From contig CP012986.1 in assembly GCA_001761425.1 (NCBI GenBank), positions 1,080,001 to 1,112,000 on the forward strand: 32,000 nt of DNA. Direction: 5' to 3'. Of this stretch, positions 1 through 32,000 are shown piece after piece; within the stretch, counting starts at the first letter, position 1; the number at the start of each line of letters is the position of its first letter. Below the pieces are notes generated by a model. The model saw only the letters and a list, made by a program, of their open reading frames with translations. It was not told where the DNA came from and did no database searches. Source of the stretch: Candidatus Saccharimonadota bacterium (GTDB taxonomy: Archaea; Nanohalarchaeota; Nanosalinia; Nanosalinales; Nanosalinaceae). Both the position numbers and the translations under genes were made by a program.

Positions 1-1
1 A

Positions 2-280
2 CTTGGACTTACAGGCGGAGGCCTACTGGCACTGTTTTACGGCTTTTTCACGGCCTTCGAATTCAGAAACACGCTTGGGAAAGGTAAACTGGCAGAGGCC
101 TGGGACAAACTGATAGGAATGATCGCCCTTTTCATACTGGGATACATAGCATTCGCCGCACAGATAATAAGCAGCAAGCAGTTCCTCGACCCCAAGCTGA
201 TCAGCGCACTAATATTCTTCGCAGGAGCAATCTTCGTCGCAGCAGTCGCAAAACTGAACTATGACGTATACAAGGTGTAA
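2..280 (+). CDS. 3' end of a membrane protein gene (5' end lies outside the window)
   Basis: Open frame runs from the window edge to TAA at 278-280. Translation LGLTGGGLLALFYGFF...GMIALFILGYIAFAAQ...ALIFFAGAIFVAAVAKLNYDVYKV is mostly hydrophobic helices. Absent from the ORF track because no start lies in the window. Confidence 0.4.
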   Translation, partial: LGLTGGGLLALFYGFFTAFEFRNTLGKGKLAEAWDKLIGMIALFILGYIAFAAQIISSKQFLDPKLISALIFFAGAIFVAAVAKLNYDVYKV

Positions 281-289
281 AGAAAGAAA

Positions 290-757
290 ATGACTTTATC
301 CAAAGGCCTAAGAAAAAGACTTGATACACAGGGATTCCTAGACGTTGAAACCAAAAGTACAGCACGCTGGCTGAAATTCTCCCCACTGATGTGCGCTATA
401 GGTTTTGCACTGGGAACATATCTGCAGAGCCCTGCCCTGCTATTCACAATGGCACTTTTCGCCGTAGCAGGCCTTTCATTCCACCATACTCCTTTTGACT
501 GGCTTTACCTTTACGCCGTAAAGCCTGTGATCAATGGACCAGAACTTCCCAAGAGGCCTGCACCCGCGAGATTCGCCTGCTTCGTAGCTGTTGTCTGGGG
601 TTCAGTCACTGCTTCAGCCTTCCTCATCGAATACAACACGATAGCCACGGTACTCGGTATCGCTTTGACCGGCGCGGCGACCTTGATGGGCACAGTTAAC
701 TACTGCATAGCCTCCAGGTTCTGGAGAATAATTTACGGATGGCCCGACCAAGAATGA
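290..757 (+). CDS. Small multi-pass membrane protein, DUF4395-like
   Basis: 155 aa ORF with 3-4 hydrophobic segments. The PAPARFACFVAVVWG and NYCIASRFW segments resemble the RFA...G / C-x-x-C-tail pattern I recall for DUF4395. Family assignment is from memory only. Confidence 0.5.
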   Translation: MTLSKGLRKRLDTQGFLDVETKSTARWLKFSPLMCAIGFALGTYLQSPALLFTMALFAVAGLSFHHTPFDWLYLYAVKPVINGPELPKRPAPARFACFVAVVWGSVTASAFLIEYNTIATVLGIALTGAATLMGTVNYCIASRFWRIIYGWPDQE

Positions 758-776
758 TGGACAAAGAATCAAGGAG

Positions 777-784
777 TTTAAAAA
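777..784 (+). promoter_or_regulatory. TATA-like box (TTTAAAAA) about 27 nt upstream of the aIF1A ATG; implies a leaderless or near-leaderless mRNA
   Basis: TTTAAAAA at 777-784 and ATG at 808. The spacing matches the archaeal TATA-to-TSS distance. Confidence 0.4.
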
Positions 785-807
785 CTTCATCCGTCTAAAC
801 CTTTCCT

Positions 808-1122
808 ATGAGCGAAGATAATGAAGAACAGGAAGTAGGAAGGGTAAGGAAGCCGAACAACGATGAAGTACTGGGCGTAGTCCTCAGAAAGGAAGGAGGC
901 GGAAAATACCGTATCTACTGTACAGACGGCGAAGAAAGAATCTGCCGCATCCCAGGATCAAAGAAAAGAGGCCTATGGGTCAAAAGAGACAACGTAGTAC
1001 TCGTAGAACCATGGGACATCCAGGGCGACGAAAAAGGAGACATCGTCGAAAGCTACAGCAACGCAGAGACCCGCTGGCTTGAAGACCACGACTTCCTGGA
1101 CGAAATCAAGGAATTCCTGTAA
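808..1122 (+). CDS. eif1a: Translation initiation factor aIF-1A (S1-like OB fold)
   Basis: 104 aa. VLGVVLRKEGGGKYRIYCTDGEERICRIPGSKKRGLWVKRDNVVLVEPWD is the typical aIF1A/eIF1A core. It sits in the conserved archaeal aIF1A-Rio1-KH neighbourhood. Confidence 0.92.
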   Translation: MSEDNEEQEVGRVRKPNNDEVLGVVLRKEGGGKYRIYCTDGEERICRIPGSKKRGLWVKRDNVVLVEPWDIQGDEKGDIVESYSNAETRWLEDHDFLDEIKEFL

Positions 1123-1173
1123 AAATTCTAAAGGCCTTCAAGTCCTCAAATCCACCATATTCTGCTCAAACGT

Positions 1174-2124
1174 TTACACAAAGTCGGGGACAGCTGAGGA
1201 ATCAGAACCGTTTTCAAACACTTCTAAATACACTTCAGGACCTGAAACCTTTTCCCCGGCCATAAGAGAAGCAGCAACTAGATCATAACCTCTGCTCTCG
1301 TCTGAATCTACGTTCTCTACAGCTTCAGAGGCCTTCTGATCGGAAAGACCTATCTCACGCATATCCTGCTCTGAAACGCCCGAAGTCTCTGAAAGAGCCT
1401 GCGCATAACCGTTTACAACGGTACTCGCCGCCCTCATATCATGAAGCTCTTCCCAGTCAAGGCCTCTGAAATCCTGTTCGGCGAAATTCTCCAGAGCACT
1501 GATCTTCGAAGCCCTTTCAAGGCCTTCTGTCATCGGAGGGACATTCTTTACTCTCTGGTTCGTCCAGGTCGGAGATTCAGACTCATGCTGGTACCTGTGG
1601 AATAGCTCAGACGCAAGAGTATCATAGGCCTGTCTCTCGGGAAGTCTATCCTTGCTGACACCTATCTTTCTAGAATAAGGATTGTAACCGGCTTCTGCGT
1701 TCGAGGCCGTCGCCTTCGAGTTAAAATATTCACAGGCCAGGGCGCTGGCAGCGAGAGCTTCACCAGCAACCGAAGGTTCGAAAGCAGCGACGACCGAAGG
1801 AGCTATCAGGCCTGAACCAAAAATCTTTACAGCCTGTCTATCAGCTCTGGGAGTAAGGACTTCACGTATCGACATATCGTAGAGAATGTCATCCTTAAAC
1901 TCCTCACGTACGTCTCCAGTATCCTGATCCAGGAGATCATCGTAAAAATCCATTAAGAAATCAGCTGCCTCATAGATATCATCTTTCGAAGCCTCAACCC
2001 CATCAAGATAACCATTGACCTCTCTCTGAGACAGCAAAGGCTTTCCGTCAAACTCAGTTGCGTATTCCTGCGCCTGAGACCTCATAGCATCAAGAACCAT
2101 CGCAATCTCACTATTCAATAACAA
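1174..2124 (-). CDS. Hypothetical acidic protein
   Basis: 316 aa ORF with the same D/E-rich composition as the confident genes. It fills the gap between flanking genes. No motif recognised. The start could instead be the internal MVLDAM. Confidence 0.6.
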   Translation of the reverse strand: MLLNSEIAMVLDAMRSQAQEYATEFDGKPLLSQREVNGYLDGVEASKDDIYEAADFLMDFYDDLLDQDTGDVREEFKDDILYDMSIREVLTPRADRQAVKIFGSGLIAPSVVAAFEPSVAGEALAASALACEYFNSKATASNAEAGYNPYSRKIGVSKDRLPERQAYDTLASELFHRYQHESESPTWTNQRVKNVPPMTEGLERASKISALENFAEQDFRGLDWEELHDMRAASTVVNGYAQALSETSGVSEQDMREIGLSDQKASEAVENVDSDESRGYDLVAASLMAGEKVSGPEVYLEVFENGSDSSAVPDFV

Positions 2125-2180
2125 CAGTTAAAAAAAGCCTGTCGCTCGCCTTTTTGAAATTCAAGGCCTCAACCGGAAAC

Positions 2181-2990
2181 ATGAGAGAAGAAAAAAACAG
2201 GAAAAATAGTAACCCTGAAAGAAACAAGAACATCGATTACAGGGAGAGATGGAAGGAAGAATCGCGCAAGATGTTTGACTCCTCCGAGGCAAGAAAAGCA
2301 GTTGACAACGTTTTCGAACATGAGACTAAAAAGGCCTTGCTGAAGCTTGGAGACAGAAAAGTTCTCGACAGGCTGTATGGAACCATCGAGTCTGGGAAAG
2401 AGTCTCTTGTCTTTCTAGCAGATACTCCAGAAGGCGAACGGGTGCTTGTGAAAATTTATATGACTCAAGCCGGTAGTTTCCGAGATATGATGCAGTACCT
2501 GCGGGGAGATAAGCGTTTTAGAAACGTTAAGAAGGACAGGAGAAGCGTGATCAACGAATGGTGTAAAAAAGAGTACAAGAACCTGGATAAGTCATCGAAC
2601 GTTGTTAACTGCCCGGAGCCTATCGCATACGAGAAAAATATCCTGGTCATGGAGTTTATAGGCGAGGACTTCTCACCTTACCCTAAACTGAAGGATGTGG
2701 AGATCGAGAACCCTGAGGAGGCCTTTGAAATGGTTATGAACGGTATCGAAAAGCTCTGGAGCAGTGAAGAGATTGTTCACGGCGATCTGTCCGAGTATAA
2801 TATTCTTGTGGCTGAAGATGAGCTTGTATGGATCGATTTCAGTCAGGGTGTACATGTTTCGCATCCTGAGGCCCGTGAACTCGGAAAACGAGATATCCGT
2901 AATGTAACGAATTTTTTCCAGAAACAGGGTGCAGATATCGATACTGATAAGGCCTTAGATCGGGTTTTTCCGGATGTAGAAGGCCTGTAG
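2181..2990 (+). CDS. rio1: RIO-type serine/threonine protein kinase (Rio1-like)
   Basis: VLVKIY (ATP-binding Lys), catalytic loop VHGDLSEYNILV and metal-binding IDFSQGV. The ORF track starts at TTG 2154; I prefer ATG 2181, downstream of the TTAAAAAAA box at 2129-2137. Confidence 0.9.
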   Translation: MREEKNRKNSNPERNKNIDYRERWKEESRKMFDSSEARKAVDNVFEHETKKALLKLGDRKVLDRLYGTIESGKESLVFLADTPEGERVLVKIYMTQAGSFRDMMQYLRGDKRFRNVKKDRRSVINEWCKKEYKNLDKSSNVVNCPEPIAYEKNILVMEFIGEDFSPYPKLKDVEIENPEEAFEMVMNGIEKLWSSEEIVHGDLSEYNILVAEDELVWIDFSQGVHVSHPEARELGKRDIRNVTNFFQKQGADIDTDKALDRVFPDVEGL

Positions 2991-3042
2991 CTGTTATACA
3001 AGGTATAAAAAGGTTGGCAGTTGTTTCTTTGTTAGAGGCCTT

Positions 3043-3546
3043 ATGAAAGAAGTTAAGATACCGGAGGAGCGTGTCGGCGTCTTGATCGGAGAGGGCGGTG
3101 AGACCAAGGAGAAGTTCGAGGACCTGACAGACTGTTCTCTGGTGGTCGAGGATAACGTTGCCCGTATTGAGGGAGATGCTCTTGCGGAGATGAATGCTCA
3201 GAAGGTTGTGAAGGCTATCGGAAGAGGTTTCAGTCCTGATAAGGCCTTCAGGTTGGTGGAGAGGGATGTTGCTCTGTATATTGTTGATATCAGTGAGTTT
3301 GCGTCTACCTCGAACTCTCGTGACCGTTTGAAAGGTCGTGTTATCGGCCGTGACGGCGAGGCAAGGCGGCATATCGAGAAGATGTGTGAGATTGATATTG
3401 CGGTTTACGGTAAGACGATCGGGATGGTCGGTAAAGCTGAAAATATTGAGGTCGCTCAGGAGGCGGTTACGATGTTGTTGAACGGGAGTTCGCATTCGAC
3501 GGCGTATAATTACCTTGAGAAGAATCAGGGCAAGATCGTTAAGTAG
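3043..3546 (+). CDS. KH-domain RNA-binding protein (archaeal Dim2/Pno1-like)
   Basis: Two KH GxxG loops (VGVLIGEGGETK and RVIGRDGEARRHIE). It has the conserved position downstream of the Rio kinase. Confidence 0.85.
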   Translation: MKEVKIPEERVGVLIGEGGETKEKFEDLTDCSLVVEDNVARIEGDALAEMNAQKVVKAIGRGFSPDKAFRLVERDVALYIVDISEFASTSNSRDRLKGRVIGRDGEARRHIEKMCEIDIAVYGKTIGMVGKAENIEVAQEAVTMLLNGSSHSTAYNYLEKNQGKIVK

Positions 3547-3594
3547 AGTTAAAAATAGTTGAGTATTTGATACTATCAGAGGTTTAATCATACT

Positions 3595-5190
3595 ATGGCA
3601 GAAGGTATTGAAGGACAGGCAGTAGAGGCTGAAGGAGGAGATCACCGTGAGATTTCTGTAGCGGAGTTCTTCGAGAAGAACAAGCACCTGCTGGGATTTG
3701 AGAACGCTCAAAAATCTATAATTACAGTTGTGAAGGAAGCTGTTGATAACTCGCTTGACGCATGTGAAGAAGAAGAGATTTTACCGGAGATCCAGGTTTT
3801 GATCGACGATATCGGCGACGAAAAGTGCCGTGTGGAGATCAGAGACAACGCCATGGGTCTTGACCGCGAAACAATCCCCAAGGTTTTCGGCAAGCTTCTG
3901 TACGGTTCAAAGTTCCACAAGCTACAGCAGAGCCGTGGACAGCAGGGAATCGGAATCTCAGCTTCTGCGATGTATGCACAGTTGACCACGGGAGAGCCTG
4001 TGACCGTCTGGTCCAAGCAGAAAGGCGAGCCATGCCACAAGTTCATTGTAAGAATTGATACGGAGAACAACGAACCTGAGATCCTCGAAGATGAAGTTGT
4101 AGATCCTGAGGGAGACGAGTTCCCTGCGAAGAAAGATTACTACTTCGATCACGGAACCACAATCGAGATGGATATTGAGGCCAAATACACGAAAGGCCAC
4201 CACTCCGTACGCAACTATTTGAAACACACAGCGATCATGAACCCATACGCAAGAATTGTACTGAGAGAACCAAGCGGAAACAAGATCGAGTACCCAAGAG
4301 TCTCAAAGGAGCTTCCAAAAAAACCGAAAGAGATCAAACCACACCCACACGGAGTGGAACTGGGAGTCCTAATGAGAATGATAGAAAACACAGACTCCCG
4401 CACAGTAAGCAGCTTTCTCCAGAACGAATTCACACGTGTAGGAAAAACCTCGGCAGAAAACATATGCGAGGAAGCAGACATAGATACAGGAAGAAGGCCT
4501 AACACCATGAGCAAGGATGAAATAGAAACCCTGCTCAACGCAGCACAGGAAGTAGACCTTCAAAGCCCTCCAACAGACTGTCTATCCCCTATAGGAGAGG
4601 ATCTTGTCGAGAAAGGCCTTCAGAAAGAACTCAACCCCGATCATATCTTCTCAGTGACACGTAAGCCCACAGTCTACAAAGGAAATCCCTTCCAGGTAGA
4701 AGTAGGCCTTGCATACGGAGGAGATATCCAAGAAGAAGGCTCTTTCGACGAACTCAGATATGCCAACAAGGTCCCACTGCTTTACAAGAAATCAGCGTGT
4801 GTAACGACTAAGGCTATCGAAAACGTTTCTTGGAACCGCTATAACATTTCTCAGACCGGGAACAGGCCTCAGGGACCGCTTTATGTCCTGGTTCATATCG
4901 CGTCTGTCTGGGTTCCTTTCACATCTGAGGGTAAGGAAGCTATCGCGAACTATGACCCTATCAGGAAGGAGATGAAGCTTGCTCTCCAGGAAGTCGGCAG
5001 GAAGCTCGGTAAGGAATTGAAGCGTGAGGAGCGGCGCAGAGTTCAGGAGAAAAAGAAGCGCAAGCTTACTTCTTATGCCAAGGAGATGGCTCCTGCGATC
5101 GCATCCCTTGCTGAAGGAGGAAGTGAGGAAGATATGGAGGATAAAATCCAGCAACTTGTTGAAGCGGATTACAACCCGGAACAGCTTTAG
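3595..5190 (+). CDS. top6B: DNA topoisomerase VI subunit B
   Basis: Bergerat-fold motifs EAVDNSLDA (N box) and SRGQQGIGIS (G box). 531 aa, immediately upstream of top6A. Confidence 0.95.
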   Translation: MAEGIEGQAVEAEGGDHREISVAEFFEKNKHLLGFENAQKSIITVVKEAVDNSLDACEEEEILPEIQVLIDDIGDEKCRVEIRDNAMGLDRETIPKVFGKLLYGSKFHKLQQSRGQQGIGISASAMYAQLTTGEPVTVWSKQKGEPCHKFIVRIDTENNEPEILEDEVVDPEGDEFPAKKDYYFDHGTTIEMDIEAKYTKGHHSVRNYLKHTAIMNPYARIVLREPSGNKIEYPRVSKELPKKPKEIKPHPHGVELGVLMRMIENTDSRTVSSFLQNEFTRVGKTSAENICEEADIDTGRRPNTMSKDEIETLLNAAQEVDLQSPPTDCLSPIGEDLVEKGLQKELNPDHIFSVTRKPTVYKGNPFQVEVGLAYGGDIQEEGSFDELRYANKVPLLYKKSACVTTKAIENVSWNRYNISQTGNRPQGPLYVLVHIASVWVPFTSEGKEAIANYDPIRKEMKLALQEVGRKLGKELKREERRRVQEKKKRKLTSYAKEMAPAIASLAEGGSEEDMEDKIQQLVEADYNPEQL

Positions 5191-5205
5191 AGGTGATTTG
5201 ATAAT

Positions 5206-6444: not shown

Positions 6445-6583
6445 GCCCAACTAGCTCAGTAGGTAGAGCGCCACGCTGTTAAACTCGTCCTTTCTCAAGA
6501 CGAGAAAGGGCGTACAGAAGGCCTTTCAAAGGCCTTCATATACAGTTACGTGGTGGTCCCAGGTTCGAATCCTGGGTTGGGCG
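6445..6583 (+). tRNA. tRNA-Asn (anticodon GTT at 6478-6480) interrupted by a 66-nt intron (6482-6547) at the canonical 37/38 position
   Basis: Hand-folded. Acceptor GCCCAAC/GTTGGGC is perfect; D arm GCTC-AGTAGGTA-GAGC; anticodon stem CCACG/CGTGG; T arm CCAGG-TTCGAAT-CCTGG; discriminator G. The two exons give 73 nt. No CCA is encoded. Confidence 0.85.
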
Positions 6584-6644
6584 CTGAAGGTTTCTTTCTG
6601 TTTAGAGGTAATCTATAAGTCCCAGAATCAGTTAACTGGTAGGT

Positions 6645-7987
6645 ATGGAAGAAGTTGTTATTGTTGGTGGAGGTCTAGCAGGTTTGAGCGCTGCTGTTGA
6701 CCTTGTTGAGGATGAGGATACAAATGTTACTGTACTTGAGAAAAACGGTCATCTGGGCGGTAGAGCAGGGAATAAGATTGATCCTGTGGAGGAGGATCCT
6801 GTACCGATCGCTCCGCATATCTATGTAAGTTTCTACGATGAATTGAAGAGTTTCTTCAGTAAGATTGGTTCGGAGGACGCAATATACTGGGAGGATGGCC
6901 AGATATGCGATGTCTACTATGAAGGCGAGTTTTCAACGGTAAAAACAGGTCACCTAAAGCCTCCCTGGTATCTGGCATCTCTTTTCGCCAACTATCCGCT
7001 TTTCAGTACTCGTGAGATGTTAAACAATTTCAAGGTAGGGTCAAAGCTATACCTTCTAGATGAAGATGATATTGAAGACCTGGATGATACCACTGTTGAA
7101 GAATTTTTAAACGATCTCGGTGCGAGCAAAGGAGTGATAGATAAATTCTACAGGTTGATCTGCCTGGCACTTCTTAACGCACCTGTAGAGAAATGTTCCG
7201 CGGCAGAGTTCTGCAGGTTGATGAAGAATTTCATGAAGACAGACGGAAGAGACTGGGGGTACGCAAAGGGCGGACTCGGAGATGTCTATACAGAGAACGC
7301 TAGAGAGTTTATCGAGGAACATGGCGGCGAAGTAAGGATGAAAACCGCAGTTGAAGAGATAAAGTTTGAAAGCGAAGAGGTTACCGGTCTAGAACTTGAA
7401 ACCGGGGAGTATGTAGAACCAGATCAGATTATCTCTACTGTTCCGCCTACAGTGCTTAGAGACATTCTTCCGGAGGAGCAGATGGAGACAGAGTTCTTCT
7501 CCCATCTAGAGAACTTCCACGGTGTACCTTACTACTCTGCCTTCGCATGTTTGATGGTAAGGTAACCGATAAACGCTTCTGGGCCTTGATCGATGCTGAC
7601 AGAGACAAGTACTGGAATACTGACTTCTATGATAAAAGCAATATTCCGGGAGTAGACGAGGAAAACTCCTACATCACATCCAACATCATTAATACAAACG
7701 AGATGGAGGAAAAATCAGAAGACGAGATAATGGAAAAGACCAAGGAAGAAATCCAAGAGGCCTTCCCGGAAAACGAAGCGGAAGTCCAGCACTTTAGCGT
7801 TCACAGAATCGACTACGCACTGTACGAACCGGTAACAGGTATGAGAGAACACAAGTTACCGCATGAGACACCTGTAAGAAACTTTTATTTGGCAGGAGAC
7901 TGGACAATCAAGGAAATACCACAGTGCATGGAAGCAGCAGTCAGAAGCGGAAGACGTACAGCGGAGAAAGTCTCCGAAAAGACCTGA
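6645..7987 (+). pseudogene. FAD-dependent oxidoreductase (amine oxidase / phytoene desaturase / HpnE-like superfamily) split by a frameshift near 7540-7550
   Basis: ORF 6645-7565 carries the N-terminal dinucleotide fold VVIVGGGLAGLSAAVDL...LEKNGHLGGRA. ORF 7547-7987 carries the C-terminal FAD-closing motif FYLAGDWT...PQCMEAAVRSGRRTA. The two overlap by 19 nt in different frames and together give about 450 aa, the normal size of one such enzyme. Confidence 0.7.
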
Positions 7988-8151
7988 CTAACAAGGCCAG
8001 ACACCCAAACTCTCCAAATTAAAGGATTCAAAGCCTGATACAATCCAGAACAGGCCTTTACCATGAAACAGGAACTGATCGAGAAGTCCAGAGATTACTT
8101 CGGTGAGAGAAGAGTTAGACGAGTCTTTGTGAAGTATCTGGATTAGATATT

Positions 8152-12453: not shown

Positions 12454-12485
12454 AGGCCTTCACTTTTTCGCCTCCAATTTTTTCC

Positions 12486-13789: not shown

Positions 13790-13838
13790 GCCTAGTTTTT
13801 AGCGGGTACAGACTTATGTGTGTTACGCAGAGAAAAAG

Positions 13839-13856: not shown

Positions 13857-13920
13857 TTTTGTTGAAGATCGTAGAGGAAAGAAAATAGGGAAGAAATTAG
13901 CCTGAGAGGTTTTTCAGGCC

Positions 13921-21570: not shown

Positions 21571-21571
21571 G

Positions 21572-24419: not shown

Positions 24420-25124
24420 CTATTCTTCTCCTATGTATTCTCCTTCCTCTCTTCTAAAATCATCTTCGTCCATTTCCTCTCTGACATGTGCTACGAGGCC
24501 TGGTGTCCGTGCGATTATGAAAAGGCCTTTACCGAGTCTGTAGTCCCAGTCGAGATCGCTCATGACTGCTGAGATCGCTCCGTCTACATTGATGACAAGA
24601 GGGATTTTCTTTTCGGCGAATACGTTTTTTATCTCTTTCATTTTTTCTGCGTATTCTCCTTTGAGGCCGAGATTTTCTGCTTTCTGGAAGATCTTTTCTG
24701 CTCTAGGATCTCTGTCATCGTATACTTTGTGGCCCAGGCCTGGTATCTTTTCTCCTCTCTCCAGATGTTCCTCTACTATTTCTTCTGGTGTTTTCTGTGA
24801 CTGTAGGGTTTTCATTCCTTCTTCGATTGCTCCCCCGTGTTTGTCTCCCAGTGCGAGGACTCCTGCTGCGACACCTGTGTTCATGTCGTTGCCTCCGCTC
24901 TGGACAGTCCTGGCCGAGACAGTGGATGGGTTTCCGACTCCATGATCGATACTGGAGGACAGTACTGTGTTAAATAGCTGTGATTCCTCCGCTCCGGGTT
25001 CTTCGCCTTTCAAGAGGAGCCAGATGGCGTCGGCGAATTCCATCCCCATGACTTTTTCCATATCCTGTCCACGTATTTTCCCGTCTTCGCCTGAAGACGC
25101 TATCTCGGTTCTCCACTCTGTCAT
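24420..25124 (-). CDS. Citryl-CoA lyase-like protein (short citrate synthase / ATP-citrate lyase C-terminal domain family)
   Basis: VLSSSIDHGVGNPSTVSARTV...GVLALGDKHGGAIEEG...IPGLGHKVYDDRDPRAEKIF...VNVDGAISAV...LFIIARTPGLVAHVREE are citrate-synthase-family catalytic His/Asp regions. At 234 aa it is much shorter than a full citrate synthase. Confidence 0.82.
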   Translation of the reverse strand: MTEWRTEIASSGEDGKIRGQDMEKVMGMEFADAIWLLLKGEEPGAEESQLFNTVLSSSIDHGVGNPSTVSARTVQSGGNDMNTGVAAGVLALGDKHGGAIEEGMKTLQSQKTPEEIVEEHLERGEKIPGLGHKVYDDRDPRAEKIFQKAENLGLKGEYAEKMKEIKNVFAEKKIPLVINVDGAISAVMSDLDWDYRLGKGLFIIARTPGLVAHVREEMDEDDFRREEGEYIGEE

Positions 25125-25215
25125 AAAGGTTTTTGAAACCTGAACGGATTTAACCTTTCTGAAACCGGCGAAAGATGAAAGACCTTATTTAATGCTTTCT
25201 ACCATTAACATGTAT

Positions 25216-25731
25216 ATGGAAGGCCATAAATTCGCTCTAGGCCTCTTTCTGGTTTTAATTGCCTCAGGATGTGCAGAAATAACCGGAGAGGTCTCAGAGA
25301 GCCCGAGCTTTGAGACCCTGGCTCTGGACGTAGAGACTGTTGAGGGTGTTACAGGTGCAGATTACAGGCCTTCAGACGGGAATCTCTCAGGTTCTTTTCT
25401 GAATATGAGTTCTATGGTAAAGAGGGTCGAGTCCTTCTTTGTCCAGGACGGCAATCTCTCCGAGGCCCCTGATTCAGTTCAGTCCATGGTCGTGGCTCTG
25501 AACAGCAGTTCAAACGATACTGTTACAGACATCAGTTTCGACAGGACTGTGGACATAGATGGTTATGAGGCCCGCAAGTTGAACTCGACAAATCAGACCT
25601 TGCTTTACAGCGAAAGAGATAATCTTTCGTTCGCCGTCAGAACTGAAGGCGACGGATTTTACAGCTCCGCCAGAAAACTTTACAGTGAGATAGCTGAAGA
25701 CATAGAATCCTTCGAAAATAGTTCTAACTAA
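25216..25731 (+). CDS. Secreted lipoprotein, hypothetical
   Basis: MEGHKFALGLFLVLIASGC lipobox. Start chosen at 25216 because a TTATTTAA box at 25185-25192 overlaps the track's ATG at 25192. Several N-x-S/T sequons. Confidence 0.6.
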   Translation: MEGHKFALGLFLVLIASGCAEITGEVSESPSFETLALDVETVEGVTGADYRPSDGNLSGSFLNMSSMVKRVESFFVQDGNLSEAPDSVQSMVVALNSSSNDTVTDISFDRTVDIDGYEARKLNSTNQTLLYSERDNLSFAVRTEGDGFYSSARKLYSEIAEDIESFENSSN

Positions 25732-26485
25732 ATCCCGTATCGACATAATCAATCCATCTTCTCTGCACAGACTCGTCCGGGCCGTACTCCTCCACAGCTT
25801 CTTCAACCGCTGTCTCCAGGAACTTCCTCTGGTAGAGATCGTTTCTTGACCTTAACTTCGGATCATCCATCTCATCTCCAGAAGGCATCCTGCCCTCAAG
25901 ATCAGACCTGTCCATATCAGCTCTTTGAAAAGGCCAAAGCTCGAACTCCGAAGCATAGCTGAGGCCTATATCATTCGGAGGCCCGTTCCTGTAATCATCG
26001 TGGAAACGGGAAAGCTCATCGCTCTCAGTGAAATCAAGATCTCTACGAAATAGTTCCATCTCAGAGAGAGCCTGTCCCTCAGCTTTCTCCGGTAAAACAC
26101 TGTGAACATAGTTCGTCGCTGCTCTGTAGGCCTTCTGTTCTCTTCTGATAATTTCTCCCAACCACTGATCGACCGAGGCCCTCATATAGGCCTCTAGATT
26201 GTCTATATCTTCGTCGAAGTCTATCTGAAGGGATGTTCTTCCACCTGGAAAGTTTTCGACGTAGATATGCATGTTTCCGTTCTGTATCTCAAGATCCTTC
26301 GAGTTTCCGTTCGGGTGAGGTGTCACATTGTATCCTTTGCGGTTGGCGTGTTCCCAGAGGGTGTCGAAATCAAGGAGGTTTCTGGAGCCTCCTGCCTCTG
26401 TTCCAAGAAATTCTCTGTCGTATGTATTTTCCTCACGGTCGAATTCTCCCGGACCGAAGATCTCCTCAAAGCCTAGGACAGTCAT
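25724..26485 (-). CDS. Hypothetical acidic protein
   Basis: 253 aa with composition like the rest of the proteome. Lies 48 nt downstream of the SCS-alpha-like gene on the same strand. No motif recognised. Confidence 0.6.
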   Translation of the reverse strand: MTVLGFEEIFGPGEFDREENTYDREFLGTEAGGSRNLLDFDTLWEHANRKGYNVTPHPNGNSKDLEIQNGNMHIYVENFPGGRTSLQIDFDEDIDNLEAYMRASVDQWLGEIIRREQKAYRAATNYVHSVLPEKAEGQALSEMELFRRDLDFTESDELSRFHDDYRNGPPNDIGLSYASEFELWPFQRADMDRSDLEGRMPSGDEMDDPKLRSRNDLYQRKFLETAVEEAVEEYGPDESVQRRWIDYVDTGFS

Positions 26486-26533
26486 ACATCATAACTGTGC
26501 GGGAAGTTTTTACCAAGTTATGGAGGAACATAT

Positions 26534-27427
26534 CTAATCCAGTACATTATCCAGCATATCACCGATCTCATGGTGAACATCTGCGACGTGAGCACCGGCC
26601 TGTTTCAAGGCCTTTTCTTTGTGGCTAGGCTTCCCACGATCTCCTCTTATGATCGCTCCTGCGTGGCCGTACTTTTTCTCCGGCATATCCTCCGTGAACT
26701 TTCCGGTTATATACACTACCAGGGGCTTCGTGAACTCTCCTTTTTCCACGAATTCAGCGGCTTTCTCCTCGTAAGTTCCTCCTAGCTCTCCAAACAAGAC
26801 GACAGCCTCAGTCTGGTCATCCTCCTCGAACTTTTCCAGTGCGTCTTCAAACGCAGTTCCTGCAATAACATCTCCGCCAAGGCCTGCGGCGGTAGAAACT
26901 CCATATCCTGCCTGTCGGACAACCCATGAAGTTTCCGTTGTCATTCCACCGCTCTTGGAGATTACCCCTACCTTCCCTTCTCTGTAGACTCTCTCAGGTT
27001 TGTTTCCTCCGATAGGCCCGAGCTTTGCTTTTCCAGGAGAGATGATACCTACGCTTGTAGGACCTACCATCGTCGCATCGTATTCCTGAACTTTCTCGTA
27101 TATCTCCCAGGCATCCCTCGTCGGAATCCTTTCAGTAATAACGTTCAATGTCTCTACACCGTTTTCCAAGGCCTCGAATACAGCGTCTCTAGCGGCGAAA
27201 GGCGGGACATAGATCAGTGAAGTATTTATGCCTGGATGCTTCTGTAAGGCCTCCCGGACGGTGTCATAGACCGGTACGCCTTCAACTTTCTGCCCTCCCT
27301 TGCCGGGAGTTACGCCCGCAACGACGTCGGTACCGTACTCGATCATCTCCGGGACCTTTTCACTTGCCTCCCTGCCCGTGATCCCTTGAACCAGAACCTT
27401 GGTATCTTCATCTATGAGTATACTCAT
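26534..27427 (-). CDS. Succinyl-CoA synthetase alpha-type subunit (CoA-binding plus phosphohistidine domain); candidate citryl-CoA synthetase / ACL small subunit
   Basis: LVQGITGREAS...YGTDVVAGVTPGKGGQKVEGVPVYDTV and the phosphohistidine loop KKYGHAGAIIRGDRGKP. Confidence 0.9.
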   Translation of the reverse strand: MSILIDEDTKVLVQGITGREASEKVPEMIEYGTDVVAGVTPGKGGQKVEGVPVYDTVREALQKHPGINTSLIYVPPFAARDAVFEALENGVETLNVITERIPTRDAWEIYEKVQEYDATMVGPTSVGIISPGKAKLGPIGGNKPERVYREGKVGVISKSGGMTTETSWVVRQAGYGVSTAAGLGGDVIAGTAFEDALEKFEEDDQTEAVVLFGELGGTYEEKAAEFVEKGEFTKPLVVYITGKFTEDMPEKKYGHAGAIIRGDRGKPSHKEKALKQAGAHVADVHHEIGDMLDNVLD

Positions 27428-28062
27428 TTCGAGTCAACCTCCTTCAAGGCCTCTCTCACGTTCTCACAGGTAAGTTTATGGATGGTAGGTCCTTTAAAGC
27501 CCGAGTTGAACACATGGTAGTTATCGTTCCATACGAAATGCATACCCTCCTTCTCAGCGGCCTTATCTCTGTCCACGTAGTTCCCGAAGTAGACGAATCT
27601 ACCCGCGTCTTCATCCCTCTGCTCGATGAAAGCCTGGAAAATCCTTCTATCCGGCTTTTCAACGCCAACTTCCTCGGAAACAACGAAGCCCTGATAAGAA
27701 AGGCCTTCCTGGTTGAACAGCTCTTCGTAAAAGTTTTTCGCAGCGATGGAGTTGTCGCTGATGAACCCTATAGGTCCGAAATCTTCGTTAATCCTTTTCA
27801 GCTCTTCTATCACGTTTTCTCTGAGGAAGTCGCGCTCCCAGTCAAGGTAAGTCTTCTTCAGCTTCTCCGCGTCCGCCTCTATACTGTGTTTTTCCAGCCA
27901 GGCCTCGACCTCGGATGGCTTGTAGATGTTGTACTCGTTTATCGGGAGTTCAGGAGCATCTTTTACTCCTTCACGTCTCAGTTCTTCGTGGACTTTCTCG
28001 TTTATCTTCTCGTGGGATGGTAGCAGGGTGTCGCCGATATCGAATACAGGTATTTTATTCAA
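27424..28062 (-). CDS. HAD-superfamily protein with atypical motif I (FDIGDTL), paralogue 2
   Basis: IPVFDIGDTLLPS (motif I variant), GFISDNS (motif II), VGVEKP (motif III Lys) and FVYFGNYVDRD (motif IV variant). Shares 4-nt and 8-nt overlaps with its neighbours. Confidence 0.78.
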   Translation of the reverse strand: MNKIPVFDIGDTLLPSHEKINEKVHEELRREGVKDAPELPINEYNIYKPSEVEAWLEKHSIEADAEKLKKTYLDWERDFLRENVIEELKRINEDFGPIGFISDNSIAAKNFYEELFNQEGLSYQGFVVSEEVGVEKPDRRIFQAFIEQRDEDAGRFVYFGNYVDRDKAAEKEGMHFVWNDNYHVFNSGFKGPTIHKLTCENVREALKEVDSK

Positions 28063-28705
28063 GGTTACTGATCACCTCTCTTAGCTTCTCAAATTCAAGT
28101 TCGTCTATCTCAGGGCCTTCAAAGCTGGAGTTGACTGTATCAAACTGCGTGACCCAGATGTACTTCATACCTGCGTCCAGTGCTCCTGAATCTACCTCTG
28201 CATCATTTCCTATGTAGACAAATTCCCCGGGAGGCCTCTCTCTTTTCTCTGTAAAGGCCTTGAAGATCTCAGGGCTTGGTTTCTCCACACCTACCTCCTC
28301 GGAGACTACTATCGTATCATAGTCGACCTCATGTTCGTCAAGCAGCTTCTTCATAAGGTTTTTGGCCTCTACAGAGTTGTCGCTGATGATTCCTACAGTT
28401 CCGAACTCTCTGTTGCATTTTGCGAAGAGATCAAATACACCATTTTCCATCATAAGATCCTCGAAGGCCTCCAGATACCTTTTCCTGCAGCCATGAGCCA
28501 GTTCCCTGGGATCGCCGTCTATATCATATTTTTCAAGATACTGTTCAATCTGGCTCGGATCATACATCATGAACTTGTCAGGATCGAAATCGTGGACAAC
28601 TTTATGATTCCTCTGACGCAGTTCATCCTCGATGACGTGTGAGGCAAATTTTCTTGAAGGAACCAGGGTATCTCCTATGTCAAAGACAGGTACAAATCCG
28701 CTCAT
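28055..28705 (-). CDS. HAD-superfamily protein with atypical motif I (FDIGDTL), paralogue 1
   Basis: VPVFDIGDTLVPS, GIISDNS, VGVEKP and FVYIGNDAEVD. Clearly a paralogue of 27424-28062, sharing for example the 16-nt string GAGTTGTCGCTGATGA. Confidence 0.78.
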   Translation of the reverse strand: MSGFVPVFDIGDTLVPSRKFASHVIEDELRQRNHKVVHDFDPDKFMMYDPSQIEQYLEKYDIDGDPRELAHGCRKRYLEAFEDLMMENGVFDLFAKCNREFGTVGIISDNSVEAKNLMKKLLDEHEVDYDTIVVSEEVGVEKPSPEIFKAFTEKRERPPGEFVYIGNDAEVDSGALDAGMKYIWVTQFDTVNSSFEGPEIDELEFEKLREVISNLE

Positions 28706-29847
28706 TCAACACCACCCTTGTACTCTTTAACCATCTCCATTAAATCTTCTGCGGACTGTGTCATAGGCTTGTCATTCCTGAAAAGTTTCATGTTTAGACC
28801 TAGCTCCTCTTTCTTCTCTCTAAGCAGTTCGAAGGCCTTGTCCGCATGAGGCCCATCTCTACGCACGACGATCGGATAATCAGGTTTTTCCTCCTCCAGG
28901 GCCTGGATAAAGCCTTTCATAGTCCTGAGAATGTCTGTATTGTTTGCTGTTCCTCCGACATGCCATAGACCGTTCAGATCTTTCGACATGATAACCTTTG
29001 CGAGCTTGTAAACTTTTTCTGTCGGCGGATTACCTCCGTACTCCGTGTAGTTTGCTGGTTCTCCGCCGTATTCGATCAATGCATCTGTGTTGGTTAAGCT
29101 TGCGCCTCCGCCAGCCAGCATCATTCCGATATCGCCTTCAAGTTCAGTATATTTTCCTGCAACCCCTCTATGGTCCTGTTCATCGATTTTTTCCGCACGC
29201 AACTCTCTAGAAGTTTTTTCACGGCCAAGATCCGACCTTTCCGGCAGCTCCCGGTCATGCCTGTAACTTGCGTCATTGTCCAGATCCATCATCGCATCCA
29301 GGATAATGTAACCGTCCTCCGTCTTCGCCAGTGGATTTACCTCCAGCAAGCGTGCATCTTCCTCCAGAAAGGCCTTGAACATCTTCTGAAGCACTTTTCC
29401 AAGGCTGACGATTTCCTTTCCTTCAAAGCCATTTTCTTTCAGGAACTGTCTGAAACGGAACTGAGAACTGTCTTCCAGCGGAAGTTTTGAGGCCTCTCTG
29501 TCCTCTATCCCTGAGCCTCCCTGTTCCGAGAATATCATAGCCGGTTTTCGCGTGTCTGTATCGTAGATGAATGATACGTAGTATTCTTCTTCAAAATCTA
29601 TCTGTTCCTCGACTAGAACTTTCTGTACTTCTTCGCCGTCGATCCTTCCACCGGTCATTTCGCTTTCAACTACCTGTACTTCCTTCCTGTTCTCCGCGAA
29701 CCTGATTCCACCCTTCTCCTTCCTCTTGTTGGCCAGTACCTGGGCCTTAACAACGTATTCTCTATCGTCATGTTGAAGGCCTTTCTCTGGCGTTTTGAGG
29801 CCGTTTCTTTCCAGTATTTCTTTGGCCTCTTGTTCGTGGAGTTTCAC
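28702..29847 (-). CDS. ATP-grasp beta-type subunit of the succinyl-CoA synthetase / ATP-citrate lyase family (ACL-like features)
   Basis: MKLHEQEAKEILERNGL ATP-grasp N-terminus. MLAGGGASLTNTDALIEYGGEPANYTEYGGNPP and VGGTANNTDI...IVVRRDGPHADKAF resemble the ACLY blocks AGGGASVVY...ANYGEYSGAP and GGSIANFT...VRRGGPNYQEG more than the SCS-beta block NGAGLAM...PANFLDVGGGA. This comparison is from memory. Confidence 0.88.
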   Translation of the reverse strand: MKLHEQEAKEILERNGLKTPEKGLQHDDREYVVKAQVLANKRKEKGGIRFAENRKEVQVVESEMTGGRIDGEEVQKVLVEEQIDFEEEYYVSFIYDTDTRKPAMIFSEQGGSGIEDREASKLPLEDSSQFRFRQFLKENGFEGKEIVSLGKVLQKMFKAFLEEDARLLEVNPLAKTEDGYIILDAMMDLDNDASYRHDRELPERSDLGREKTSRELRAEKIDEQDHRGVAGKYTELEGDIGMMLAGGGASLTNTDALIEYGGEPANYTEYGGNPPTEKVYKLAKVIMSKDLNGLWHVGGTANNTDILRTMKGFIQALEEEKPDYPIVVRRDGPHADKAFELLREKKEELGLNMKLFRNDKPMTQSAEDLMEMVKEYKGGVE

Positions 29848-29915
29848 ATCTGGGAATTTTTTCTGAATGTTTAAATTTCGAAAGGCTGAAAACCATGGAG
29901 CTACAGTTTTTATTC

Positions 29916-30434
29916 ATGGTTTATACTGGACGTGGAGACAGAGGAAGAACCGATCTCTCCTCGGGGGAGAGAGTTTCCAAAAGTTCTGAAAGGATCGAGG
30001 CCTACGGCACGGTTGATGAATTAAACTCTCTTCTCGGAGTCTGCAGAAGCTTTACGGAAGACAAAGATAAAGAGATTGAAGAGATACAGAACGAGTTGCA
30101 TATACTTCAGGCAGAGCTTGCGAACCGTGAACCGGAGACAAAAGTCACTGAGGAAAACACTGAAAGACTCGAAGGCCTCTGCGATAAGTACCAGGAAGAA
30201 TGTCCTCCGCTGACCAGCTTCATCCTTGCAGGAGGTACAGAAAGTGCGGCACAGTTACATAATGCTCGTTCAGTTGCCAGGAGAGCAGAGAGAAGAATTG
30301 TCAGGCTGGACCAAGACGAAGAACTCCGTGAAGAAGTCCTGGCCTATATCAACAGGCTGAGCGATCTTTTCTTCCTCATGGCAAGACATGAAAACTATCT
30401 AAACGATGTAGAGGAGAAAAATCCCAGGTACTAG
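29916..30434 (+). CDS. ATP:cob(I)alamin adenosyltransferase, PduO type
   Basis: MVYTGRGDRGRTDLSSGERVSKSSERIEAYGTVDELNSLLG...FILAGGTESAAQLHNARSVARRAERRIV...INRLSDLFF. Start at 29916 gives the canonical N-terminus. Confidence 0.9.
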   Translation: MVYTGRGDRGRTDLSSGERVSKSSERIEAYGTVDELNSLLGVCRSFTEDKDKEIEEIQNELHILQAELANREPETKVTEENTERLEGLCDKYQEECPPLTSFILAGGTESAAQLHNARSVARRAERRIVRLDQDEELREEVLAYINRLSDLFFLMARHENYLNDVEEKNPRY

Positions 30435-31189
30435 AGTTTTCTGTTCCACTCTGGAGAACAGAATTTTTCCTCCACCAGTTTTTCAGCTTCTTCAAGTTCC
30501 TCCTCAGTAAGGCCTTCTTCCACCGTTTTCCTGTCCTCTACAAATTTCTGTATCAAGGCCTGTATTACCTGTTTCCGTGAGGCCTCTGTATGGTCTTTAA
30601 TTTTTGATACTCTTTTCTCAGCTGATTTCACTGCTTTATCGGAGACCTTTTCTTTTCCGATCCTCAGGACTTTCAGCATTTCCTCTGTGTCAAGATCGTA
30701 GCTCATCGTTGTGTGGTGTAAAACTGCTTTCTGTTTCCTGAGCTGGGCAGCACCTCCAAGCTTTCCATCAGTGTGCTCGATATCGTTCAGAGGTTCGTAG
30801 CTCGCTTCAACGCCAAGATCGTTCAGGGCCTTGACCGCAAATTCATCCAGCTTCCTGTAGCTTTCCTCTACATCTTCCGGAACTTCGTCTTTCGGGATAT
30901 AGATAGAGTATGTTATCACGTTACCTGGCTCGCAGAACATTGCTCCTCCTCCAGTTATCCTTCTTACAACCTCTACGCCTTTTTCCTCAGCGTATTCATG
31001 CTCAACTTCATCCTGGTAGGCCTGAAACCTTCCGAACGGAACACTGGGTCCTTTTCTGTACCAGAACCTGAGTGTAGGCCTCATATCCACGTTATTCATT
31101 TTTTCTGTCAGCACTTCATCGATCGCATGATGCATCGCCTCAGAATACTCTCCCTCATTGATTACGCGCCACTTACTCATCTCTTTCAC
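30431..31189 (-). CDS. lplA: Lipoate-protein ligase A, catalytic (N-terminal) domain protein
   Basis: TLRFWYRKGPSVPFGRFQ...GVEVVRRITGGGAMFCEPGNVITYSI...KLGGAAQLRKQKAVLHHTTM matches the BPL/LPL catalytic domain, with the RRxxGGGAV-like motif and the lipoyl-AMP Lys region. Confidence 0.88.
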   Translation of the reverse strand: MKEMSKWRVINEGEYSEAMHHAIDEVLTEKMNNVDMRPTLRFWYRKGPSVPFGRFQAYQDEVEHEYAEEKGVEVVRRITGGGAMFCEPGNVITYSIYIPKDEVPEDVEESYRKLDEFAVKALNDLGVEASYEPLNDIEHTDGKLGGAAQLRKQKAVLHHTTMSYDLDTEEMLKVLRIGKEKVSDKAVKSAEKRVSKIKDHTEASRKQVIQALIQKFVEDRKTVEEGLTEEELEEAEKLVEEKFCSPEWNRKL

Positions 31190-31460
31190 CCTCTACAGCT
31201 TCCCTGAAGGCCTCAAAAACGTCTTCAGCGGAGAATCCTATCATATCGACATCTACCTCTTCCAGTTTCTCTACTACCTCTTCCTTCTCTGCCTCTGTTT
31301 CGAGGCCTTCCAGCTTTCTTTCAAGCTCCTCCAGTTTTTCCGGCGGTTCAAGGAAGAAGTCGCCTCTGATTTCTGCGTTCTCTATCTTTTTGTTTTCCTT
31401 CTCCAGTTCCAGCTTTATCATTTTTCCATCCGGGACTTTCCTTGAAGCTTTCAGAGTCAT
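31173..31460 (-). CDS. lplB: Lipoate-protein ligase accessory subunit (LplA C-terminal domain as a separate protein, LplB-like)
   Basis: GKMIKLELEKENKKIENAEIRGDFFLEPPEKLEELERKLEGL...MIGFSAEDVFEAFREAV resembles the LplA C-terminal domain. It overlaps lplA by 17 nt. Start taken at ATG 31460. Confidence 0.72.
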   Translation of the reverse strand: MTLKASRKVPDGKMIKLELEKENKKIENAEIRGDFFLEPPEKLEELERKLEGLETEAEKEEVVEKLEEVDVDMIGFSAEDVFEAFREAVEGERDE

Positions 31461-31612
31461 GTTTCTACACTTGGAGAGGCCTGAATAAAAACAGGATGGA
31501 AGCCTTGGGAGAATGGCATTCTTTTTCAACCAGCAGATTCTTTTTTCAGGTAGAGATAAACTGGCACAGCAGCAGATTTTTCCCTGCCTACAGCAATCTC
31601 GAGGTTTAACCA

Positions 31613-32000
31613 GTGAAAAAATGGAGATACATCCCGTTCAGGTACTACGACCCGTACTTCAAGACAGGCCTTAACAAGGCCTTGATGGAGTCAGCAAGGG
31701 AAACAGGCGAGAAAATTATCTTCCTTTCCGGATGGGAGAACGACTGCGTCAACATCGGCTACAGCCAGAGAATCGAAGAAGAAATAGACATCGGGGAGGC
31801 GGAGCACAGAGGCCTTGACATCGTCAGAAGGCAGGGCGGTGGAGGAACCACTTACCTGACAAGAGACGGAGAGATAACCTGGGGAATAGTCGCACCCGGA
31901 AAAGAGTTCCCGGACGATGTGAACAGTACCTACAGAAAAATCTGTAGCGAGATCGCTGAAGGCCTTTCAAAGATCGGAATAGAGGCAAGACACGAACCCA
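31613..32000 (+). CDS. Second lipoate/octanoate-protein ligase paralogue (5' part; continues beyond the window)
   Basis: A GTG start is forced by the in-frame TAA at 31607-31609. Translation is VKKWRYIPFRYYDPYFKTGLNKALMESARETGEKIIFLSGWENDCVNIGYSQ...GLDIVRRQGGGGTTYLTRDGEITWGIV. The out-of-frame ATG at 31621 terminates after 17 codons. Confidence 0.8.
   Translation, partial: MKKWRYIPFRYYDPYFKTGLNKALMESARETGEKIIFLSGWENDCVNIGYSQRIEEEIDIGEAEHRGLDIVRRQGGGGTTYLTRDGEITWGIVAPGKEFPDDVNSTYRKICSEIAEGLSKIGIEARHEP

Follow-up and report, generated by a model that had tools for sequence, protein, structure and literature searches.

The DNA stretch described here (contig CP012986.1 of assembly GCA_001761425.1, positions 1,080,001 to 1,112,000; called the window in its full length of 32,000 nt) belongs to a nanohaloarchaeon, i.e. 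a DPANN archaeon whose relatives include Ca. Nanosalina, and its proteins are strongly acidic. It is 100% identical to positions 1,086,553-1,118,552 of the 1,125,078-bp contig Ga0136257_100001 in JGI metagenome 3300010222, and its topoisomerase VI-B shares 81-86% identity with that of many nanohaloarchaea, including Ca. Nanosalina sp. VS9-1 and Ca. Nanohalococcus occultus. Genes such as those for aIF1A, a KH protein, RpoN and a HIT protein, as well as an intron-containing tRNA-Asn gene, are interspersed with copies of one palindromic hexamer, AGGCCT. Highly iterated palindromes (HIPs) have been known in cyanobacteria for approximately 30 years, and their origin and function are still not agreed upon. 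As far as our literature searching showed, AGGCCT is the first case of the HIP phenomenon in Archaea; no mention of an AGGCCT excess in nanohaloarchaea turned up in full-text searches.

The AGGCCT palindrome in the window

AGGCCT occurs 123 times in the window (3.84/kb) and is its most frequent hexamer, the runner-up words being those that overlap it. The extended palindrome AAGGCCTT has an exact count of 25, so that the original prediction, made by eye from the letters alone, came very close with roughly 120 and 25 copies. The expectation of six to eight copies given there is likewise borne out by base composition (6.7) and by dinucleotide-preserving shuffles (7.5 ± 2.9, maximum 16; none of 100 reached 123). 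Only the one-mismatch relatives, estimated at 25-30, are somewhat more numerous (AGGCCC 19, GGGCCT 10, AGGCCG 5, CGGCCT 7). AGGCCT accounts for 61% of all GGCC tetramers in the window, the other GGCC-centred palindromes being rare (CGGCCG 2, TGGCCA 4, GGGCCC 0), and no other palindromic hexamer exceeds 15 copies there. As in a cyanobacterial HIP, we find a short, GC-rich palindrome that is in at least approximately 15-fold excess and is the top word of its length.

The strictest null model was a shuffle of synonymous codons within genes, which preserves every protein and also the already inflated codon usage. It yielded 17.1 ± 3.8 copies (maximum 28, n = 300) compared to 104 observed in coding sequence, and AGGCCT was the top outlier among all hexamers (z ≈ 22). 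Scoring against a higher-order Markov model, as had been proposed originally, is uninformative. The observed 123 copies exceed the order-3 expectation (58) and lie near the order-4 expectation (113), but these nulls are circular, because AGGCC (154) and GGCCT (148) are mostly made up of AGGCCT itself. They were dropped, and the codon shuffle and the comparison of orthologous loci were used in their place.

The copies start at positions 19, 96, 304, 469, 554, 969, 1132, 1329, 1460, 1520, 1626, 1808, 2164, 2332, 2719, 2950, 2981, 3036, 3242, 4495, 4614, 4704, 4864, 5535, 6519, 6530, 7758, 8052, 8168, 8327, 8522, 8718, 9122, 9218, 9548, 9700, 9894 and 9917 in the first 10,000 nt, at 10282, 10586, 10694, 11019, 11140, 11494, 12454, 12554, 12617, 12692, 13066, 13246, 13542, 13602, 13746, 13847, 13916, 14132, 14341, 15830, 16034, 16085, 16143, 16481, 17358, 17437, 17915, 17927, 18000, 18161, 18338, 18360, 18466, 18914, 18949, 19329, 19480 and 19886 in the next 10,000, and at 20136, 20898, 22631, 22774, 22861, 23128, 23335, 23498, 24007, 24073, 24405, 24496, 24523, 24736, 25239, 25366, 25962, 26128, 26188, 26608, 26880, 27169, 27247, 27447, 27701, 27900, 28232, 28255, 28465, 28833, 29370, 29490, 29777, 29998, 30173, 30510, 30556, 30580, 31018, 31076, 31208, 31303, 31477, 31666, 31677, 31810 and 31960 in the remainder. 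According to our refined annotation 104 of them (85%) are coding, two lie in a tRNA intron and 17 are intergenic or at gene boundaries. Their spacing is near-exponential (mean 262 nt, coefficient of variation 1.09) and their flanks are nearly uninformative, with A or G at position -1 in 74% and T at +1 in 50% of the copies and nothing conserved beyond ±1 nt. No longer repeat or repeat family was found around the sites in the window.

Coding sites occur on both strands and in all three phases (14, 40 and 42 in phases 0, 1 and 2), as had been predicted. Examples on the plus strand are AGG CCT for Arg-Pro at 554-559 (phase 0), xAG GCC Txx in Glu-Ala-Trp at 96-101 (phase 1) and xxA GGC CTx in Lys-Gly-Leu at 304-309 (phase 2). 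Outside genes the density is even higher, 7.7/kb (17 sites in 2,218 nt) compared to 3.6/kb in coding sequence. One copy lies directly 3' of the rpoN stop codon (12454-12459), another overlaps the HIT stop codon (13916), and the fully intergenic others start at 1132 (10 nt 3' of the aIF1A stop), 3036 (1 nt 5' of the KH start codon), 8052, 9548, 9700, 13847, 14341, 17915, 17927, 22861, 23498, 24405, 31477, 31666 and 31677. Wherever we checked coordinates of the original prediction (304, 96, 554, 1132, 3036, 12454, 13916) they were right. The termination-associated role that it had considered did not hold up. Intergenic copies adjoin the starts and the ends of genes equally often, an isolated hexamer palindrome forms no hairpin, and the fold-excess is similar in intergenic and coding DNA, so that the excess at boundaries requires no terminator function.

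Close pairs are limited to three among the 123 sites. AGGCCT-N6-AGGCCT at 17915-17932 lies between divergent genes and could form a hairpin, and AGGCCT-N5-AGGCCT at 31666-31682 ends 3 nt upstream of the start of a lipoate-ligase-like gene. The third pair is in the intron (approximately 66 nt) of tRNA-Asn(GUU), which is encoded at 6445-6583 on the plus strand (Rfam tRNA match 57 bits; fold -66 kcal/mol, z = -7). There the copies at 6519 and 6530 pair as a 9-bp hairpin, GAAGGCCTT-TCA-AAGGCCTTC, at 6517-6537, in agreement with the hairpin noticed before. The intron as a whole folds into two hairpins, and this tRNA was overlooked by ARAGORN and caught by the Rfam tRNA model.

Occupancy of synonymous opportunities

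A more direct measure of the force behind these numbers is occupancy, i.e. the fraction of peptide contexts able to encode AGGCCT synonymously that do so. In the window it reaches 74% overall, where codon usage would give 11.5 sites. All three phases are affected (67-93% per phase): 13-14 of 15 Arg-Pro contexts, 42 of 58 [KEQ]-A-[FLSYCW] contexts and 45-47 of 63 x-G-L contexts are written AGGCCT. Occupancy is even from gene to gene, the sole gene-level outlier being a strain-specific amine-oxidase gene, and long stretches free of AGGCCT are mostly just stretches free of permissive peptides. It also hardly depends on neighbouring copies, amounting to 70% with another copy no more than 30 nt away and to 67-84% in the remaining distance bins. 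With only this slight drop, confined to 60 nt, density-dependent saturation was rejected. The 9.7 kb upstream of the window show the same picture (4.7 AGGCCT/kb, occupancy 77%).

When the loci of related genomes introduced below are pooled, 430 of 584 opportunities (73.6%) are used in six enriched genomes compared to 14 of 261 (5.4%) in six background genomes, an odds ratio of 49 (ln 49 ≈ 3.9). The non-coding DNA of the enriched genomes contains AGGCCT at 26 times the composition expectation. Moreover, the compatible tripeptides themselves are more common in enriched genomes, [KEQ]-A-[FLSYCW] 1.85-fold (p = 2e-7) and x-G-L 1.65-fold (p = 3e-6); hence the force has reshaped proteins. The saturation of synonymous opportunities, the non-coding excess, the site autonomy and the peptide shift, taken together with the contrasts between sister genomes, support a site-autonomous, sequence-specific fixation bias of approximately 50-fold in odds, which affects all resident DNA and has a cause that lineages can gain and lose.

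Patchy distribution among relatives

We compared 16 related genomes through loci of 8-32 kb each, using simple longest open reading frame (ORF) calls as the genes of the relatives. Six genomes are enriched, namely the window (3.8 AGGCCT/kb), VS9-1 (NZ_CP180230.1; 4.5), L092 (4.4), L008 (3.35), L090 (5.1) and M3_22 (CP046106.1; 2.1), with occupancies of 53-81% and, in the five besides the window, observed-to-expected ratios (O/E) of 10-30. Four are weakly enriched (L094, L091, L093, L002), with occupancies of 15-17% and no non-coding excess, and six are at background (L001, L003, L006, L007, L095 and Ca. Nanohalococcus occultus L089, accession CP104395.1). Among 72 more distant archaeal loci, which are near background, a single one from an uncultured archaeon (L019) has an O/E of 3.8.

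In a tree of the 16 genomes, built from five proteins with the motif codons masked, these classes are interleaved. The enriched L005 and L092 (4.4-4.5/kb) group with the weak L091 and L093 (0.5-0.6/kb) in a clade with 100% bootstrap, the window (3.8/kb) is sister to the weak L094 (0.6/kb) with 77%, and L008 and L090, both enriched, are sisters with 100%. An earlier nine-genome tree had joined four enriched genomes (bootstrap 80%), but the denser sampling placed weak or unenriched genomes as sisters of enriched ones, and a single-origin clade was rejected. Such contrasts between sisters imply repeated gain or loss of the trait. Complete sequences exist for two enriched genomes and for one that is unenriched.

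The five shared genes contain 12 alignment columns at which two or more enriched lineages show AGGCCT, with 7-10 of these columns filled in every enriched genome. At the same columns unenriched genomes show synonymous variants such as AGGTCT, AGACCT, AGGGCT, AGGACT, AAGCTT and others; hence the changes needed include transversions as well as transitions. L094 has kept four of the 12 and shows one-off versions at four, which looks like a partly decayed state. Across five orthologous genes motif positions reach a Jaccard index of 0.35-0.47 for deep lineages and of 0.62-0.77 for sisters, compared to 0.09-0.16 for other hexamers. This is a small sample, with 8-13 sites per genome, and because permissive positions are few, a re-created site looks the same as a retained one. 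Four-fold degenerate sites are near saturation between these lineages (identity 0.41-0.49, with 0.25 by chance).

Strain differences and mobile DNA

On a much shorter time scale, strains with 98.5-99% identity have 71 of 79 sites in common over 20 kb. The eight sites that differ show substitutions of various kinds, including three AGGCCT/AGGCCC exchanges. The species is present in many metagenomes, and the sister strain in at least eight samples.

BLAST breakpoints delimit a strain-specific segment of 1.5 kb (6596-8133), which adjoins the 3' end of the tRNA-Asn gene and represents recently acquired DNA, because it is missing from strains that are 98.5% identical elsewhere. Its amine-oxidase gene (6645-7565) carries AGGCCT at none of four permissive positions (P = 0.0035, given an average of 76% in the window). 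This gene is broken up into two ORFs that overlap (6645-7565 and 7547-7987), a sign that it may be a frameshifted pseudogene within a small tRNA-associated islet.

Sister strains carry a virus-like element of 9.6 kb (L220:3641-13272; also L097:1-7390) that is absent from the source strain. It is integrated at tRNA-Arg(GCG), with the junction inside the last approximately 10 nt of the gene and the intact tRNA beside a tyrosine integrase. In addition to this integrase it encodes a terminase/packaging-ATPase-like protein (PHROG match, E = 3e-5), an HNH protein and approximately 25 small ORFs; no close relatives were found in IMG/VR. The element contains 20 AGGCCT compared to 1.8 expected (2.1/kb), while the flanking chromosome has 4.5-5.8/kb, and 12 of 28 opportunities are occupied in the 7.4 kb of the 9.6 kb analysed. 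No methyltransferase-family Pfam match was obtained on the full 9.6 kb. We therefore rejected a driver carried on the element and conclude that the driver acts in trans or is mimicked.

Pairs of AAGGCCTT in viral contigs belonged, among the matches listed, to unrelated viruses (a polyomavirus, tandem iterons, an AT-rich phage), with no recognisable nanohaloarchaeal virus. The unrelated viral contig L102 (IMGVR_UViG_3300029432_000018; 36% GC, proteins not acidic) carries 13 AGGCCT within 3.6 kb (1-3639), all between the listed ORFs, and in the viral contig L121 AAGGCCTT lies within 19-nt tandem iterons (4273-4580). Hence, local uses of the same palindrome exist elsewhere.

Near-miss words and restriction avoidance

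Words that differ from AGGCCT at the first or last base are also in excess (O/E 1.5-2.9, which is 1.4-4.3 times the value in unenriched relatives), most clearly AGGCCC/GGGCCT with 2.9 compared to 0.68 in unenriched relatives, whereas variants at inner positions are not (O/E 0.6-1.0). The neighbours that deamination of C to T would produce are not depleted: AGGTCT/AGACCT has an O/E of 0.89 (0.98 in unenriched relatives) and AGGCTT/AAGCCT of 0.95 (1.17). This speaks against the short-patch repair of the Vsr type that the original prediction had listed among possible drivers, and we rejected a Dcm/Vsr signature. For the enriched M3_22, a REBASE survey gives exactly one restriction-modification gene, a Type II methyltransferase of the N4-methylcytosine (m4C) class, together with zero Vsr genes, zero 5-methylcytosine (m5C) genes and no endonuclease (PMC10609329).

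That the enrichment is the opposite of what restriction-type palindromes normally show, as had been pointed out, is underlined by other words in the same window. GDGCHC (SduI-type, including GAGCTC, GTGCAC and GGGCCC) is avoided with 11 copies, at 427, 688, 1494, 11152, 21968, 22006, 25299, 26590, 28180, 30773 and 31802, compared to 58 expected, and CTTAAG with zero compared to 10. CTAG, the avoidance of which is familiar in haloarchaea, stands at approximately half its dinucleotide expectation (0.4-fold in the window) in enriched, weak and unenriched loci alike (the window and 15 relatives). Ordinary restriction avoidance therefore coexists with the AGGCCT excess. In the locus of the unenriched Ca. 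Nanohalococcus occultus (L089) GDGCHC occurs once compared to 37 expected, and it was the only motif in the methylome of this species obtained by single-molecule real-time sequencing (PMC10266531, PMC11001535). The same locus encodes a PDDEXK_5 protein and a GmrSD-type (Type IV, modification-dependent) restriction enzyme (12933-15330) right after topoisomerase VI-A. Furthermore, GGCC is under-represented against the dinucleotide expectation in the unenriched L001 (14 compared to 33) and L006 (13 compared to 18), as might result from restriction aimed at GGCC in some relatives lacking the AGGCCT excess.

Comparison with known iterated words

The HIPs of cyanobacteria, which the original prediction had named, proved the fitting comparison with respect to positional conservation above background, excess of variants at the first and last position, and sporadic distribution (PMC4390886, PMC5861425). 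HIP1 is GCGATCGC, and alternates are GGCGCC in Calothrix PCC 7103, rCCGGy in Oscillatoria PCC 10802 and GCsGC in Cyanothece PCC 7822 (PMC4390886, PMC5861425). The alternate hexamers are sporadic, each alongside a methyltransferase of matching specificity (PMC4390886). AGGCCT and the HIPs are short, GC-rich palindromes with a 15-30-fold over-representation; they occupy all reading frames and non-coding DNA and do not reflect codon or peptide usage; and their positions are conserved between genomes more than those of control words, with Jaccard values of 0.35-0.77 and 0.09-0.16 in our case. Deviants are biased towards the outer nucleotides, in line with the one-off variants of HIP1, which Elhai 2015 found concentrated at its first and last nucleotide (PMC4390886). 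Finally, both are sporadic by lineage, with close relatives that lack the motif, and have the sequence of a classical Type II restriction-modification site. The differences are that AGGCCT is found in Archaea, in a DPANN symbiont, with another sequence than the cyanobacterial HIPs, that it reaches 2.1-5.1/kb compared to approximately 0.5-2.5/kb, and that its cognate methyltransferase is a candidate only. Moreover, the AGGCCT host is a symbiont with a reduced genome, whereas symbiotic cyanobacteria tend to lose HIP1. For the cyanobacterial palindromes Xu et al. 2018 also describe a periodicity of 10-90 kb (PMC5861425).

Other iterated words resemble AGGCCT less closely. The uptake signal sequences (USS) of Pasteurellaceae and the DNA uptake sequences (DUS) of Neisseriaceae likewise consist of one short word in genome-wide excess wherever coding permits, with an effect on proteins and an extra density outside genes, and they could build up by molecular drive without benefit for the cell. 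However, they are non-palindromic, 9-12 nt long and present at approximately 1/kb, while AGGCCT is a hexamer palindrome with only a weak preference at ±1. DUS often form inverted terminator pairs, but only three close pairs exist among the 123 AGGCCT sites, of which one lies in a tRNA intron, one between divergent genes and one ahead of a gene start. The USS/DUS mechanism further requires natural competence and a sequence-specific receptor; nothing of this kind is known or was seen for AGGCCT, though competence genes were not searched for. The Dcm/Vsr system acting on CCWGG in E. coli offers a methyltransferase target that is made more common by a site-autonomous local repair bias. Its effect is small and depletes the products of C-to-T deamination, whereas the AGGCCT excess is 16-18-fold and comes without such depletion, and the conversions at orthologous AGGCCT sites include transversions. 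The avoided restriction sites of nanohaloarchaea (GDGCHC) and haloarchaea (CTAG) are palindromic, Type II-like and different among close relatives, but the sign is opposite. Repetitive extragenic palindromes (REP) and miniature inverted-repeat transposable elements (MITE) have a conserved unit of at least 20-40 nt, are mostly extragenic and form imperfect hairpins, while AGGCCT lacks conserved flanks and is 85% coding.

Origin of the AGGCCT excess

We regard AGGCCT as an archaeal HIP that would arise from a trans-acting, site-by-site fixation bias that is prone to gain and loss, with an AGGCCT-specific orphan DNA methyltransferase as the most likely agent, and give this explanation about an even chance. 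According to it, some nanohaloarchaeal lineages would carry a trans-acting factor that recognises AGGCCT and slightly favours, at each site independently, the fixation of alleles with the exact hexamer over that of near-misses (odds of approximately 49, population-scaled approximately 3.9). In the long term, nearly every position tolerated by the proteins would turn into AGGCCT, the proteins would drift towards compatible tripeptides and unconstrained intergenic DNA would fill to a comparable fold-excess, all of which matches the observations. The partial conversion of a long-resident mobile element, the untouched state of recently acquired DNA and the decay towards background in lineages that would have lost the factor match them as well. 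Such an enzyme could tip local repair or gene conversion in favour of alleles that it can methylate, or every methylated site could bring a slight, additive advantage. Which factor is involved can only be suggested from analogy plus two facts from the literature, and either repair or selection may underlie the bias; the link to an orphan m4C methyltransferase is a possible one.

Several points weigh against this explanation. Strains 1.4-2.3% apart lose sites at approximately the neutral rate of the codon positions (eight differences compared to approximately six expected), and in a three-lineage comparison all five polarisable changes look like losses; hence nothing points directly to a bias still at work over short times. 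The near-neutral young differences fit a weak per-site force under which losses dominate the mutational input by approximately 30 to 1 and equilibrium lies at approximately 75% occupancy. The numbers are small, and we count the near-neutral loss rate as unexplained, not as support. Elhai's model of methyl-directed mismatch repair predicts saturation at approximately 1 site/kb (PMC4390886), but AGGCCT does not level off near this density, with 70% occupancy even within 30 nt of another copy. The single methyltransferase of M3_22 could instead serve the avoided GDGCHC site. No AGGCCT methyltransferase, nuclease or binding protein was seen in the sequences examined, which cover 8-32 kb per genome and were not extended to whole genomes. 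Furthermore, the 16-genome tree is built from five proteins and is weak at its deeper nodes.

The main rival, which we consider possible but rather unlikely, assumes a selected DNA signal that is read by a protein unrelated to methylation or repair, each copy adding a small benefit. Readers could be an uptake or recombination machinery using AGGCCT as a tag of conspecific DNA, in the manner of USS/DUS, a Chi-like self mark against nucleases exchanged with the host, or an abundant nucleoid protein. Weak selection on individual sites could account for the estimated strength, the proteome is skewed as has been described for uptake sequences, mimicry would give an enriched mobile element, and patchiness could track the gain and loss of the reader. 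The positional conservation fits as well, since Xu et al. 2018 take the same property of HIP1 as selection (PMC5861425), and approximately 3.8 sites/kb would allow kilobase fragments to be told from DNA with background frequency. However, a hexamer makes a poor specificity tag compared to the 9-12-nt USS/DUS, a palindrome has no orientation, spacing is irregular with only three inverted pairs, and sites are lost between strains at approximately the neutral rate. No competence or reader gene was identified in the sequences examined, competence genes not having been searched for. A signal at the level of RNA, with AGGCCU in every crossing transcript as target of an RNA-binding or RNA-modifying enzyme or a ribonuclease, appears very improbable. 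The compact, mostly transcribed genome and the copies in the tRNA intron would suit it, but the fold-excess is approximately the same in intergenic DNA, including that between divergent starts (17915/17927, 14341, 13847), and occupancy is uniform over genes of very different expected expression. We also know of no precedent for thousands of such RNA sites.

Two further explanations have practically no chance of being correct and were rejected. Codon usage, codon-pair bias or a preference for certain di- and tripeptides might seem to produce the enrichment as a by-product, given the moderate use of GGC, GCC, AGG and CCT and the order-4 Markov figure of 113, which is circular. This explanation is refuted by the codon shuffle (17 ± 4 compared to 104 observed), by the high occupancy of all phases, by the intergenic density and the two copies in the tRNA intron, and by the orthologous proteins of sister genomes, whose matching residues are encoded by different synonymous codons. 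The original prediction had thus been right to disfavour a peptide or codon-usage effect. The few close pairs able to form hairpins might be taken for traces of a dispersed repeat family of the REP/MITE kind or of an assembly or adaptor artefact. But the flanks are unconserved beyond ±1 nt, no repeat family surrounds the sites, most of them lie in frame within conserved genes, and the same enrichment is found in independent NCBI, JGI, ENA and Logan assemblies, so that flank, repeat and orthologue evidence refutes this explanation as well.

As an unlikely extension of the methyltransferase explanation, AGGCCT could be a genome-wide self mark, written by a site-autonomous conversion system linked to an orphan methyltransferase and read in order to distinguish the DNA of the symbiont from that of hosts or viruses. 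Such a mark might serve in nuclease protection or in DNA exchange over the cytoplasmic bridges of these ectosymbionts, and would have to be imitated by viruses and integrated elements.

Other features of the window

Apart from the palindrome, the window contains a split ATP-citrate-lyase-like set (24420-29847), which is composed of a citrate-synthase C-terminal domain (24420-25124), a CoA-binding/ligase subunit (26534-27427) and a subunit with ATP-grasp and citrate-binding domains (28702-29847). Two tandem paralogues of HAD hydrolases lie between its parts. In a DPANN symbiont, metabolic equipment of this kind is unexpected. Three large acidic proteins encoded in a row (545, 661 and 435 aa; 17951-22840), secreted or anchored in the membrane, gave no Pfam matches and may be surface or host-interaction proteins.

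Significance

The AGGCCT excess places a phenomenon of the HIP type in another domain of life, in very small genomes of approximately 1 Mb, and in an extreme form, since three quarters of the synonymous opportunities are used and protein sequences are visibly bent. Any analysis of codon usage, k-mer binning or selection in these organisms will be distorted by it. AGGCCT could also act as a host tag by which viruses and mobile elements are assigned to nanohaloarchaeal lineages. The interleaving of enriched, weak and unenriched genomes represents a natural experiment, in which a comparison of gene content and methylomes could identify the agent. If AGGCCT is indeed a self mark, its writer would be traceable by gene presence and absence, as sister lineages would have lost the mark, and this would provide the first mechanistic handle on the origin of highly iterated palindromes in any organism.

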